Sequence record: KC295538
Reading direction: 5' to 3' (one strand)
DNA length: 64,000 bases
Origin: Escherichia phage PBECO4
Part shown: positions 1-64,000 of the stretch, one piece after another
How positions within the stretch are numbered: position 1 is the first letter of the stretch
Layout: each line of letters starts with the position of its first letter
The notes under the pieces: generated by a model
Database searches by the model: none
What the model saw: only the letters and a program-made list of their open reading frames with translations
Told to the model about the DNA's origin: nothing
Made by a program: the position numbers and the translations under genes

Positions 1-238
1 TATTTTCATCATTGAAATCTAAAATATGTTCATTGTATAGGTAACTAATGTACTTGTTTTTGCATAGTCTAGCATTCATTAGTAACATTTCTACTGCACG
101 TTCATAAGAACAAGGAACAAGGTATAACTTAGTACCATCTTGGTGAATAATTTCCTCAGCACCATGTGGTATAAAACGTTCTGCTGTATGTGGAATATAC
201 GGCTTAGTTTTAAAAATAATTTTGAATTTAGTATCCAT
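1..238 (-). CDS. hypothetical protein (partial; C-terminus beyond window edge)
   Basis: ATG at 236-238 with GGAGG ~7 nt upstream; frame open to position 1 (MDTKFKIIFKTKPYIPHTAERF...). Confidence 0.5.
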   Translation of the reverse strand, partial: MDTKFKIIFKTKPYIPHTAERFIPHGAEEIIHQDGTKLYLVPCSYERAVEMLLMNARLCKNKYISYLYNEHILDFNDEN

Positions 239-254
239 ACCAAATCCTCCAGAT

Positions 255-1103
255 TTATAATGTTTCTTTTATGTTATGTAACATAGTATTAACTATGCAC
301 ATCTTACCACCTAACTTGTAGTAATATTCTAACTTATTAATAATATTACTTTTTAATATATCAAATATTTGATATTCATTTGGATCGAAACTAAGTTCGA
401 ATTGGAATGTATATAAATTGTTAAAGAGGTGAACTAATGATGCATCTGGTGATTCCATTGTAACTGTATATTTTTCACGATAACCAGTACTAATCACTAC
501 TTCGGATATATCACCTTTCATGTATATATCAATATTGTACATCATTGGTCTGCCTGTGGCAATATCTTTCATGCGAAAGAATGCAGTGCTACGATATACA
601 ATGCCTTCTGAAACCTGTTCTTGTATAGTGATATTTGAAACTTCACTCTCTTGGAATTTGGACTCGAATGAATGAGTGTAATTTGTTTTTTCATTATCCG
701 TGTGCATAGTACATGTGTATTTTCCAAAATCATCTCTAGATGTATATGATTTATCACTGCTAGTTTTATAGAACGAAACACCATTGATATGTTGTTCTTT
801 ATACATCATCGTGTCATGGGATTTGTAGTATGAACAATTAGGTGTTGCAAGAGATTCAAACTTGTTCACATCATGACAGTAAGAAATAGAAGAATCGCTA
901 TACATTACTACATCACGAATTGCAACTTCTTTTGTAATACCTTTTTTGACGGAAATTTGAAAGTCATTGTATGGGAAGATTGTATATCCATCGTATGCAT
1001 CTGATGTACTGATACCAAATGGTGTAGTAGAATTCAGAAATTCGTTGATATGTTCAAGTACTGAATACTTTTTAAAATTAAGAAAATCTGAAATGTCTAA
1101 CAT
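255..1103 (-). CDS. hypothetical protein
   Basis: Track ORF 255..1109 starts at TTG; first ATG at 1101-1103 (MLDISDF...). Confidence 0.6.
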   Translation of the reverse strand: MLDISDFLNFKKYSVLEHINEFLNSTTPFGISTSDAYDGYTIFPYNDFQISVKKGITKEVAIRDVVMYSDSSISYCHDVNKFESLATPNCSYYKSHDTMMYKEQHINGVSFYKTSSDKSYTSRDDFGKYTCTMHTDNEKTNYTHSFESKFQESEVSNITIQEQVSEGIVYRSTAFFRMKDIATGRPMMYNIDIYMKGDISEVVISTGYREKYTVTMESPDASLVHLFNNLYTFQFELSFDPNEYQIFDILKSNIINKLEYYYKLGGKMCIVNTMLHNIKETL

Positions 1104-1132
1104 ATACAATCCTCATAAATTTAGACAAAAAA

Positions 1133-1264
1133 TTAGTCGAGAATAAATCTCGACTTGTGTTTTACTTTACCATTTTTCATTTCTTTTTTACGATCCACAT
1201 GTGTCTGAGGTTTATTAAACTCATTCATGTGTTTCTGTACGAAATTGTTAACTTTCTTCGACAT
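1133..1264 (-). CDS. small lysine-rich hypothetical protein (43 aa)
   Basis: ATG..TAA ORF MSKKVNNFVQKHMNEF...; ends in terminator hairpin; below track size cutoff. Confidence 0.3.
   Translation of the reverse strand: MSKKVNNFVQKHMNEFNKPQTHVDRKKEMKNGKVKHKSRFILD
1135..1155 (-). terminator. intrinsic terminator hairpin
   Basis: agtcgagaataaatctcgact inverted repeat followed on minus strand by T-run. Confidence 0.5.
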
Positions 1265-1266
1265 AA

Positions 1267-61328: not shown

Positions 61329-61532
61329 TTAGTACTCGATTAAAAGGGCAAGGATATAATAGTATTGCATACTTTCTGCCCCTTGTAAAGCATTTCTTAT
61401 GATATTACTCCTGTACGAGTTCAGGAGTTTAGGACAACGTTTGTAGTGTATAAAAGTATTTTGTGTATACAGTAGGCTTTCTCGTAGACCTTTTGTTGGT
61501 AGTGCATCGATGTAGTACTGTTCAATGTTCAT
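61329..61532 (-). CDS. FamC paralog
   Basis: 67 aa; MNIEQYYIDAL ... YYYILALLIEY. Confidence 0.6.
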   Translation of the reverse strand: MNIEQYYIDALPTKGLRESLLYTQNTFIHYKRCPKLLNSYRSNIIRNALQGAESMQYYYILALLIEY

Positions 61533-61756
61533 ATAGATAGCAGTACTAAGATTTTTGATAATTGTTTATTGCTATCCCCGCAGATGTTGCTGTGTAAAAT
61601 ACTCACAATGAGGGTATCAATTGCATTGTTCATCATAAGGGTGCATCCTGGACTATTATAATTTTTTAGCTCAATTAGCCACGAACTATCCGCGAGAAAT
61701 TCCCCGTACTCTAGTTCATTTAGAGTATTGAGGTAGTACTTAAGAGTATTTGTCAT
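61529..61756 (-). CDS. FamC-like paralog
   Basis: 75 aa; MTNTLKYYLNTL... Confidence 0.5.
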   Translation of the reverse strand: MTNTLKYYLNTLNELEYGEFLADSSWLIELKNYNSPGCTLMMNNAIDTLIVSILHSNICGDSNKQLSKILVLLSI

Positions 61757-61858
61757 GTGTAGTTCTCCTTATATTCCTTCTATAGTACACCAGTACTGAA
61801 AGGATGTCAAGGGTTTTCTTTATGGGGTAAATATGATATAATGAATAAGGAGGGAAAT

Positions 61859-63061
61859 ATGTTACCTTTTGGAAGAATGGTTAAGTACGCAAATATTGCA
61901 CCAGGTCCAGAACCTGTAGAGTTCTCAGATGTTTTACAACAACATTATACAAACTGTATGTATCTACATAACCCAACTAATACTTTATATGGTTATGGTA
62001 GTAATAACATGTATCAATTTGGTCTTGGGAATTCAGCAGCAGTTTCGTCATTTACAGTACTTGCAAGGAACTGTGCAGCCTTTTGGCTTGGTGTTCAAGG
62101 TTCGTTGATGATTGATTTGGATAATAAAATATACTACACTGGGTCTGTGGCTGCATTTTCTGATTATGGAGATGCAACACCTGTTAATGGTTATTTGACA
62201 ACATGGACTGATGTTACTGTTGCATTTAATAAAATAGGTGTTATGGCTAATATGATCAAGAGTGTATATATAGGTGAAAGTACTAGAATATTATTAACCG
62301 ATGGTAGAGTAATTGCGTGTGGAAGAAATACCAATGGTGAATGTGGCTCTGGTAATAAAAATTCCATCCCTACACTCACAGTTATGACTAATATGGGTGA
62401 AGTTACACATATGGCATGTTCATTACAAGGAACGCACTATATCAAATCAAATAAAGATGCATGGTTTTGTGGTAAGGATAACTTTGGTGAAAGTGGATGT
62501 GGTGGTAGTTCTGTTGTATATTTGAACAAATTCGTGATTAGTAATGTAGAACATATTAGTACTACATACGATGTTACTTGGTGGTTTACTACTGGTGGGT
62601 CTGTATATTATAGCGGGGCTAACAGTACTGGACAAGCGGGTAATGGTACGACTACATCGGTAAATCAGCTAACACCAATTAGGAACACATCGGTCACGGT
62701 TGATGTAAGTAAGTACAGTACTTTTATTTGTCCAAGTAATATGGGAAATGCATCAATTGGTGCACCTATGGCACAATACGCACCATATGTTAGAAGTAGT
62801 GGTGCTAACTCATATGGTCAAGAAGGTAATGGAACTAATACATTAGTTAGAACTTGGAATATTTTTAATCTTAGTGCAATAAGTGGTGGTTATGAAAATG
62901 TTCTTATGGCATCTAAAGATTGGAGCAGAACCATAATAATTACTAAAGATTATAAATTATATGCATGTGGTGGCTGGAATGGAAATGGTGGTAGATTGCC
63001 AGATGGCACTTATAGTATTACTACACTAACATTAATGCCAACGCAGTTATGGCAACAATAG
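61859..63061 (+). CDS. RCC1-like repeat (beta-propeller) protein
   Basis: Repeated G-x-N-x-x-G-Q/E-x-G-x-G units (GANSTGQAGNGTTTS, GANSYGQEGNGTNT, GRNTNGECGSGNKNS); GGAGGG SD before ATG at 61859. Confidence 0.65.
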   Translation: MLPFGRMVKYANIAPGPEPVEFSDVLQQHYTNCMYLHNPTNTLYGYGSNNMYQFGLGNSAAVSSFTVLARNCAAFWLGVQGSLMIDLDNKIYYTGSVAAFSDYGDATPVNGYLTTWTDVTVAFNKIGVMANMIKSVYIGESTRILLTDGRVIACGRNTNGECGSGNKNSIPTLTVMTNMGEVTHMACSLQGTHYIKSNKDAWFCGKDNFGESGCGGSSVVYLNKFVISNVEHISTTYDVTWWFTTGGSVYYSGANSTGQAGNGTTTSVNQLTPIRNTSVTVDVSKYSTFICPSNMGNASIGAPMAQYAPYVRSSGANSYGQEGNGTNTLVRTWNIFNLSAISGGYENVLMASKDWSRTIIITKDYKLYACGGWNGNGGRLPDGTYSITTLTLMPTQLWQQ

Positions 63062-63069
63062 GAGGGAAT

Positions 63070-64000
63070 ATGTTACCTTTTGGAAGAATAATTAGGTATG
63101 GAAATATTGTCCCTGGTCCTAAAAAAATAATTAAAGTTGGTGCTTCTACACAAGGTCAATTCTTATTGACTGATTCACATGATTTATATTACATAGGTAG
63201 AAATCAAGGTGGTGAATCTGGAAATGGTAATACCAACACGGTGTCTTCGTGGACATTAGTAAGTGCAGATGTTTCTAATTTTTTCGTGGGTGATCGTACA
63301 CTTGTTATTATTAAAAATGATAATACTATATGGACATCAGGTCAAACGTACTGGTTCTCATCTTCTACAACTACTTCTTACAGTACTGTATTAGTTGAAA
63401 GGACTAGTTGGTTTACCAATGCTATACCAGTCAGTGAAATTGCTAATATTGTATGCACAAATGGTTTAATATTTGTACTTAGCACTAATTCAGTACTCTA
63501 TGGTGCAGGAGATAATGGATATCGTGGTTCTTTGGGTATTGGTTCATCATCAATTTACACATTAACTCAATGTGCTACGAACGTTCGTAAAGTAATGACC
63601 AATGCGAATGATAGTATGTATCTTACATTAGATAATAAGCTATATAGTTCTGGATGGAATAGTAGTGGGCAGCATGGTACGGGGAACCAAACACAAATTA
63701 ACACTTGGGGATTGCGTAGTTCTGGTGTAATCGATGCAGCCATTGGTGGTAATGCATTAAATTACTATAATGGTACATCATATTTCGTATGTGGTCAAAC
63801 TCCAAACTTTCTTAGTTCAGGTACGACTACATTCCGTGCAGTTCCTTTAAGTACTTTGCCTAATAGTTCTCCGTTGTTTATGACGAATTCACCTGCCTTA
63901 AATACTGCTACACAAATGGTAATTACTAGTACATATCAGAAGGGTGTTGGGGCGAACCGTGGTTTGGGATTAAACAATTCTCAAACTGGTGCTATATATA
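63070..64000 (+). CDS. RCC1-like repeat protein, tandem paralog (partial; runs off window)
   Basis: N-terminus MLPFGRIIRYGNIVPGP matches upstream MLPFGRMVKYANIAPGP; repeats GRNQGGESGNGNTNT, GWNSSGQHGTGNQTQ; GGAGGG SD. Confidence 0.65.
   Translation, partial: MLPFGRIIRYGNIVPGPKKIIKVGASTQGQFLLTDSHDLYYIGRNQGGESGNGNTNTVSSWTLVSADVSNFFVGDRTLVIIKNDNTIWTSGQTYWFSSSTTTSYSTVLVERTSWFTNAIPVSEIANIVCTNGLIFVLSTNSVLYGAGDNGYRGSLGIGSSSIYTLTQCATNVRKVMTNANDSMYLTLDNKLYSSGWNSSGQHGTGNQTQINTWGLRSSGVIDAAIGGNALNYYNGTSYFVCGQTPNFLSSGTTTFRAVPLSTLPNSSPLFMTNSPALNTATQMVITSTYQKGVGANRGLGLNNSQTGAIY

Follow-up and report, generated by a model that had tools for sequence, protein, structure and literature searches.

The palindrome AGTACT is held in great excess by selection on DNA in RaK2-like jumbo phages and may be read by a symmetric DNA-binding protein

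What keeps the hexameric palindrome AGTACT at very high density in the DNA of Escherichia phage PBECO4? The question is raised by a 64,000-nucleotide stretch of this phage (sequence record KC295538; the whole stretch is called the window below), in which AGTACT occurs 258 times, as compared with 18.1 ± 3.7 in dinucleotide-preserving shuffles. It is the commonest hexamer of the window and exceeds the expectation from base composition 12-fold, whereas the palindromic hexamer ranked second in enrichment reaches 3.2-fold only and ACTAGT, a control of identical composition, stays at 0.37-fold; CAGTACTG is found 54 times against 0.73 expected. The first-pass annotation had described the over-representation as window-wide and had called for k-mer statistics. 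These were run, and the excess survives dinucleotide, composition and codon nulls, but two blocks, at 20614-28300 and 30960-36597, are entirely devoid of the motif.

By megablast, the window falls among the jumbo coliphages of Asteriusvirus (the PBECO4/121Q/phAPEC6/G17 group): over positions 1-22000 it shares 97.7% identity with phage UB, and at ~36-56 kb it matches the direct terminal repeat (DTR) found in vB_Ec-M-J and fEgEco12. As a reference relative we aligned the complete fEgEco12 genome (374,733 bp), the termini and 20,993-bp DTR of which have been verified experimentally (PMC13070987). Its base 1 corresponds to window position 57442, which places the DTR at ~36.4-57.44 kb of the window, read on the minus strand, the strand that holds nearly all window genes; positions 1-36.4 kb align with the unique DNA following the DTR.

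Within called open reading frames (ORFs) lie 169-170 of the 258 copies (3.2 per kb), while 89 are intergenic (8.3 per kb). The first-pass annotation had ascribed part of the excess to the conserved Ser-Thr of a protein motif that it named FamA, and 64 copies do encode this pair: AGTACT is used for 64 of 125 Ser-Thr pairs, whereas codon usage predicts 16. However, the coding sites occupy all three reading frames (58/38/60, minus strand). GTACTN is used for 65 of the 91 Val-Leu pairs that follow an A-ending codon, with 19 expected, and TAC is chosen in 37 of 50 AG-TAY-T contexts, as compared with 44% TAC overall. The dipeptides Ser-Thr and Val-Leu are themselves 1.7-1.8 times over expectation, while Thr-Ser and Leu-Val are not. 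When synonymous codons were shuffled within genes with the proteins kept intact, 50.9 ± 5.6 coding sites were obtained, and shuffling of codon order yielded 21.5 ± 4.6, against 170 observed. The excess thus persists after correction for the FamA codons and for base composition, the correction under which the first-pass annotation would have given it up, and the protein motif accounts for a part only. Its codon footprint is rejected as the cause, and the shuffle nulls likewise rule out composition, dinucleotides, codon usage and protein sequence. The AGTACT excess is the result of selection on the DNA itself and not on a protein motif.

The great majority of copies are independent of one another, since only 43 of the 258 share at least 22 of 30 flanking nucleotides with another site; 37 of these 43 belong to duplicated promoter cassettes in the DTR, and 215 sites have unique flanks. 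Long repeats and paralog duplication can therefore account for only about 43 sites, and the absence of extended shared flanks excludes a tandem repeat or a dispersed repeat resembling repetitive extragenic palindromes or miniature inverted-repeat transposable elements. Gaps between sites are slightly more regular than random (coefficient of variation 0.81, p = 0.045, and 0.80, p = 0.006). The preferred site is symmetric: C at -1 and G at +6 are each seen in 42-47% of sites, G at -1 is avoided (4-10%), the best sites add T at -2 and A at +7 to give the extended form T-C-AGTACT-G-A, and flank information falls to near zero beyond ±2 nt. Half-variants of the palindrome are 2- to 4-fold enriched, as compared with 12-fold for AGTACT, and among one-mismatch neighbours AGTATT and AATACT stand at 1.5-1.6-fold and TGTACT at 4-fold. 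Other palindromes behave in the opposite way: 26 of the 64 palindromic hexamers have no copy in the window, including 18 with six expected each, CTGCAG, GGATCC, GTCGAC and CCATGG are among the absent ones, and CTAG is at 0.38-fold. Restriction-site avoidance is extreme here, and AGTACT is the opposite: as a ScaI-type site it is in excess and shows no sign of being avoided, and the restriction-modification specificity suggested in the first-pass annotation gains no positive support.

The excess extends well beyond the window. The whole fEgEco12 genome, whose segments L003 and L005-L008 were analysed by pattern search only, contains 1,115 copies (~3.0 per kb), with 6-7 per kb in the DTR and 2-2.6 per kb in the tail, baseplate and other structural genes of 3-10 kb; no gap exceeds ~2 kb outside 21-37 kb, where two deserts are located. 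Sampled regions of Klebsiella phage RaK2 (119 copies per 50 kb vs 17 expected), Cronobacter phage GAP32 (53 vs 6.1), Pectobacterium phage CBB (57 vs 6.7) and Yersinia phage fHe-Yen9-03 (51 vs 5.5) are 7- to 9-fold enriched, and the excess spans four sampled genera with different hosts (Asterius-, Alcyoneus-, Mimas- and Eneladusvirus); the DTR of CBB carries 143 copies in 22.5 kb, ten of them within its first kilobase. No excess was seen in PA5oct, a distant Pseudomonas relative of the same G+C content (3 copies per 50 kb vs ~16, and no other enriched palindrome), in the rV5-like coliphage A7_1 (7 copies per 25 kb vs 8 expected), or in one 50-kb sample of E. coli K-12 (3 copies); relative to this E. 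coli sample, the phage density is 50-100 times higher. All sampled motif-rich phages infect Enterobacterales. A scan of IMG/VR for paired TCAGTACTGA returned only 121Q-like sequences or short fragments, together with unrelated local repeats. In these samples the AGTACT excess is specific to the clade of RaK2-like jumbo phages. We came across no mention of the motif in papers on Sharanji, fEgEco12, RaK2, CBB and PA5oct, nor through full-text searches.

Between the window and fEgEco12, sites are retained more often than other words. In the 1-20.7 kb region, with 82% identity, 45 of 62 sites (73%) are intact, as compared with 43% of all hexamers, and in the DTR the corresponding values are 111 of 116 (96%) and 77%. 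Single sites thus appear to be under purifying selection, with some turnover, as 31 are present only in the window and 30 only in fEgEco12. In small early genes shared with the rV5-like A7_1 at 72-90% identity, A7_1 carries AGTATT, AGCACT or AATACT in place of the AGTACT of the window.

The densest part of the window is the DTR (36400..57442, minus strand), an early region with 130 AGTACT (6.2 per kb), where we called 40 sigma70-like promoters; the motif is present in 27 of them, at two fixed registers, while promoters such as those at 53635 and 42935 are free of it. In 17 promoters AGTACT stops 1-2 nt short of the -10 hexamer (AGTACTG-TATAAT or AGTACTGG-CATAAT), starting 7-8 nt upstream of the first base of this hexamer. 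In ten it starts 27 nt upstream of that base and shares its final T with the beginning of a TTGCAA -35 element (aaaAGTAC-TTGCAA). The first register is that noticed by the first-pass annotation in promoter spacers; it is exemplified by TTGACA-N9-AGTACTG-TATAAT at 42585..42620 (box 42597-42602), and the second by aaAGTACTTGCAA-N16-TATAAT at 55300..55345 (box 55333-55338), both on the minus strand. Several promoters have both boxes 20-22 nt, or two helical turns, apart, as at 51793..51858 (minus strand), where the boxes of AGTAC-TTGCAA (box 51830-51835) and AGTACTG-TATAAT (box 51810-51815) are 20 nt apart. AGTACT is also found upstream of terminator hairpins, as AGTACTGAATCA. A second concentration is seen at the mostly ORF-free physical left end of the genome (55790..57510), where 1.6 kb contain 16 sites, 72% of them with C at -1, and a cluster of best-consensus sites: of the 19 perfect TCAGTACTGA decamers in the window, six are in this left-end 1.6 kb and two just past the end, which puts eight at 55.85-57.5 kb, in agreement with the clusters that had been noted in the ORF-free region. 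The end cluster is conserved in CBB. The first-pass annotation was right to see a sign of a recognition element in the copies within promoters and between genes. The more specific proposal of an activator box for a modified RNA polymerase fails as a general explanation: the position relative to -10 and -35 is indeed fixed, but promoters hold only ~30 of the 258 copies, and long late structural genes of relatives carry 2-2.6 per kb.

The DTR promoters have further features in common. Most continue from TATAAT-gttttACATCaag, the start region, into a G/C-rich 5′-leader hairpin (GGGGAgaaatgattCTCCCC-like) that precedes the start codon, with examples on the minus strand at 42540-42590, 51770-51800 and 55720-55760; Rfam gave no match. 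A different promoter or terminator type, unlike those bearing AGTACT, is represented by the repeated cassette aaaaaGGGATTGACTCCGGTCAGTCCCTTTGC-TATTAT (minus strand, at 37920, 40177, 43396 and 47016), in which a -35-like TTGACT lies within a hairpin.

The two AGTACT-free blocks, both on the minus strand and both conserved in fEgEco12, turned out to differ in nature. The second desert (30960..36597), in which GTAC is at chance level, comprises the greater part of an array in which 29 paralogs of ~75 aa stand in tandem; the array begins within the island between the deserts (28301..30959, minus strand), which has 17 AGTACT (6.4 per kb). At a homologous position before the “LGT” motif, the island paralogs have AGTACT and the desert paralogs TGTACT, and the second desert is simply unenriched, with one paralog-inherited TGTACT. 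The 29 tandem paralogs are located at 29526-35883, plus 15351-15542; they share an “LGTxxQE” core and correspond to PHROG 4148.

The first desert (20614-28300) is of another kind. Its 20682..28300 part (7,620 bp, ~20 co-oriented genes) lacks AGT on the plus strand altogether, and hence the coding strand is without ACT in all frames; at the average rate of the window, ~153 copies should be present. In fEgEco12 the homologous run of 8,293 bp (L001 29020-37311) is ACT-free as well, with 156 expected, despite an identity of only 75-83% between the two; every other trinucleotide-free run in the sequences examined had at most 20 expected copies, and the sampled regions of RaK2 and CBB contain no ACT-free block. 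Since ACT is banned, AGTACT is impossible here. In its place AGTACA is present in 44 copies vs 2.7 expected (16-fold), in all three frames and including Val-Gln and Val-His codon pairs; the coding strand has 46 AGTAC and not a single GTACT. In the same block TACA and ACA are 2- to 3-fold enriched and CTA and TCT about 3-fold depleted. We interpret the AGTACA copies as the product of ongoing selection for the closest variant of the palindrome that the ban allows, which argues that whatever reads the site would have a graded rather than an all-or-none specificity. A divergent polarity around an origin was considered for the two deserts and rejected: the first reflects a ban on ACT, the second is unenriched, and CBB has no such zones.

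As to the ban itself, the simplest idea is that ACU-less mRNAs escape a putative ACU-specific endoribonuclease. In a similar way, one trinucleotide is missing from ACA-less mRNAs resisting MazF and rare in the GCU-poor targets of MqsR, a state reachable by synonymous changes; unlike in those cases, we know of no endoribonuclease in E. coli that is specific for ACU only. ChpB cleaves ACG, ACA and ACU (PMC12151602), yet the block is enriched in ACA. The ACT-free block is a second sharply defined anomaly, from which one would predict a sequence-specific ribonuclease of a new kind or a strand-specific process of equivalent effect.

Taking the observations on AGTACT together, we tentatively favour, with somewhat less than even confidence, the explanation that AGTACT, with TCAGTACTGA as its optimal form, is a cis-element maintained by DNA-level selection throughout the RaK2-like chromosome and read by a putative two-fold symmetric DNA-binding protein, probably encoded by the phage. 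Such a sequence-specific protein would cover the phage chromosome while hardly binding to host DNA, because its sites are evenly spread and 50-100 times denser than in the sampled E. coli. Loaded sites could then act as a self-mark for protection, compaction or targeting of transactions on phage DNA. In the DTR the same site overlaps the -35 element or spacer of host-type early promoters, where occupancy would change the level of early transcription, in the simplest case by turning it off. A protein of this kind is favoured by the symmetric core and flanks, by the preference for the palindrome over its half-variants and by the tolerated near-cognate sites, and the promoter registers with their paired boxes, the end cluster, the even spacing and the contrast with the host favour the same protein.

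Several points weigh against this explanation. Among the 149 window proteins, Pfam recognises no DNA-binding domain, and no candidate for the reader was found there; the annotated “regulators” of fEgEco12 have no Pfam match either, and a PHROGs search for a reader returned only families of unknown function. Sites in late genes, which need to be transcribed, speak against a simple roadblock repressor, and two conserved blocks manage without the exact site. Box-bearing promoter cassettes are also present in an rV5-like phage without enrichment, so that promoter activity does not obviously depend on the boxes. The background used for conservation consists of all hexamers and is not frame-matched, and binding and modification cannot be told apart by sequence alone. 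A broader combination of both anomalies is less likely than not: RaK2-like phages may self-label their chromosome with ~1,100 evenly spaced AGTACT, the dedicated reader of which would distinguish phage from host DNA, for protection, for compaction or to direct replication or recombination, and would also time early-promoter shut-off; separately, Asteriusvirus would keep ~8 kb of genes ACU-free against an undescribed ACU-specific ribonuclease.

The closest precedent is HIP1 (GCGATCGC), an 8-mer palindrome present in cyanobacteria at about one copy per kb genome-wide, whose function is debated. AGTACT resembles it in its genome-wide hyper-abundance, in coding-region copies that use all frames through codon choice, and in its conservation among related genomes. 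However, HIP1 is an 8-mer of cellular genomes with cognate methyltransferases, while AGTACT is a 6-mer of a virus with no known cognate enzyme and, unlike HIP1, takes fixed positions in early promoters and clusters at a DNA end. With the T4 MotA box and the TF1 sites of SPO1, short elements at a fixed distance from the -35 or -10 of host-type promoters, AGTACT shares the fixed promoter distance in a terminal-repeat host-takeover region, but those elements are confined to promoters, whereas ~88% of AGTACT copies are elsewhere, mostly in ORFs. Chi, KOPS and DNA uptake sequences are likewise words whose density and spacing are selected replicon-wide and which mark DNA off from foreign DNA; they are asymmetric and oriented, while AGTACT is a palindrome with symmetric flanks.

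Other explanations need to be weighed against a symmetric binding protein. AGTACT might be modified by a phage enzyme, a DNA methyltransferase or one of another kind, its spacing serving a methyl-directed process (such as telling the strands apart or controlling replication or packaging) or shielding the DNA from a ScaI-type nuclease. Gaps of up to ~2 kb do resemble those of GATC in methyl-directed repair of E. coli, hyper-abundant HIP1 palindromes co-occur with cognate methyltransferases in cyanobacteria, and fEgEco12 has both a C5-cytosine and a Dam-type methyltransferase, whose specificity cannot be read from their sequence. RaK2 DNA is reported to be methylated, but at CpG, which AGTACT does not contain (PMC3622015), and fEgEco12 DNA was cut as predicted by ten other restriction enzymes, ScaI not being among them (PMC13070987). 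Modification by itself gives no reason for a 12-fold excess, and the graded flank preference and the AGTACA substitution suit a binding matrix better than strict enzyme specificity; we consider this explanation unlikely. It is rather unlikely, too, that a DNA-tracking enzyme reads a strand-specific word, 5′-AGTAC-3′ or 5′-AGT-3′, as a primase start or a Chi-like signal, the palindrome being an economical way of supplying both strands with the word. Primases of the T4 type and of T7 recognise the trinucleotides 5′-GTT/GCT/GTC-3′, TCAGTA could template a pppACUGA primer, even gaps of no more than ~2 kb would be on the scale of Okazaki fragments, and sites cluster most densely where the DNA physically ends and exonucleases would enter. 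In the first desert the word is indeed on one strand only (46 AGTAC vs 0 GTACT), but the ban on ACT explains this bias without any polarity of the motif; one-strand AGTAC is seen only in this block, the second desert has no comparable polarity, half-variants elsewhere are on both strands, and symmetric flanks favour recognition of the duplex.

A reader supplied by the host is improbable in our estimation. It could be a protein common to Enterobacterales, for instance a TetR-type factor such as SlmA, the restriction of motif-rich phages in the sample to Enterobacterales and the lack of the motif in the Pseudomonas relative being as expected, with host range and phylogeny confounded in this sample. 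SlmA and Noc offer a model of dispersed palindromes that are bound by a dimeric helix-turn-helix reader and mark the chromosome for nucleoid occlusion instead of regulating genes, and the SlmA site GTGAGTACTCAC contains the AGTACT core (PMC3020112). There are ~50 SlmA sites per 4.6 Mb in E. coli, as compared with 1,115 AGTACT per 0.37 Mb in fEgEco12. SlmA requires G1, T2 and a purine at position 3 (PMC3020112), while the phage sites have C in 31-50% and G in 5-8% at position 3; the outer positions required by SlmA are absent and even avoided, extensions resembling the SlmA-binding site being about 4-fold depleted (13 vs ~56 expected, in five sequences). Consistently, GTRAGYRCTYAC, in which G1, T2, A4 and G5 are required (PMC3020112), has no full match in the window, and SlmA binding is rejected. 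To our knowledge, no other host factor has AGTACT specificity, and none of the known operators of LexA, TrpR, ArgR or other E. coli regulators seems to fit. Still less credible is a bias of repair or gene conversion, similar to very-short-patch repair, that would drive the sequence to AGTACT and leave functionless sites. Genome-wide occurrence in all frames, for which such a bias has been proposed in the case of HIP1, and the site turnover between relatives would be consistent with it, but it is disfavoured because neighbouring one-mismatch words are not depleted; it would not predict fixed promoter registers or an end cluster, amino acid composition is bent toward Ser-Thr and Val-Leu, and two resident blocks escape the drive completely. 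Least probable, and far from credible, is that AGTACT is nothing more than a box for promoters or an activator, or that it arises as a side effect of paralogous protein motifs, repeats or composition. The two registers in 27 of 40 DTR promoters, the 64 copies encoding Ser-Thr and the 37 DTR sites in duplicated cassettes are explained in this way, but as a sole explanation it is contradicted by the 170 copies in ORFs, by the ~2 per kb in fEgEco12 structural genes of 3-10 kb, by the 3- to 8-fold shortfall of the shuffle nulls and by the 215 unique flanks.

Phages normally purge short palindromes, and one that is kept at 12-fold excess, in all frames and at a cost in amino acids, suggests a strong and undescribed function. 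This function would concern the handling or protection of DNA in very large phages without a nucleus-like shell: RaK2-like jumbo phages are not nucleus-forming, and Sharanji, a relative of fEgEco12, is reported to have no ChmA homolog. The motif-rich genera and the motif-poor PA5oct provide a comparative handle for finding the reader gene.

The remaining parts of the window are as follows. Positions 1..20613 (minus strand) contain tightly packed genes with 71 AGTACT, nearly all in ORFs and in all three frames. DNA past the DTR boundary (57443..64000) is motif-rich; 31 copies are found at 57443-61800, chiefly in small minus-strand genes, and a long RCC1-repeat gene is located on the plus strand at 61841-63061. 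Because the left genome end maps to 57442, we presume that the 57.44-64 kb part is the opposite, right-hand end of the unique DNA, a placement made through the left-end mapping and not by direct alignment. Apart from RCC1 repeats, which include those of this gene, Pfam matched among the 149 window ORFs only a DksA/TraR zinc finger, a toxin domain of the ParE-like type and a few domains of unknown function, and Rfam and tRNA scans of the window gave no match. Small early genes and promoter cassettes of the DTR share 72-90% nucleotide identity with rV5-like (Vequintavirinae) coliphages at ~39.2, 42.3, 46.1-46.5, 49.1-49.7, 51.1, 52.3-52.9 and 54.7 kb, which implies that unrelated phage groups have exchanged them; the same segments were matched by the “Campylobacter phage” records C3, A135 and A142 (~140-146 kb), which are possibly mislabelled. 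In the ORF-free left end, ~0.8-0.9 kb from the terminus, about 12 imperfect 8-bp units (TAGCCGTC / GGCTAGAC-like) are arrayed at 56536-56634, near several copies of TTTTGGGCGTA followed by small hairpins; the array and the TTTTGGGCGTA hairpins are candidate packaging or replication signals.

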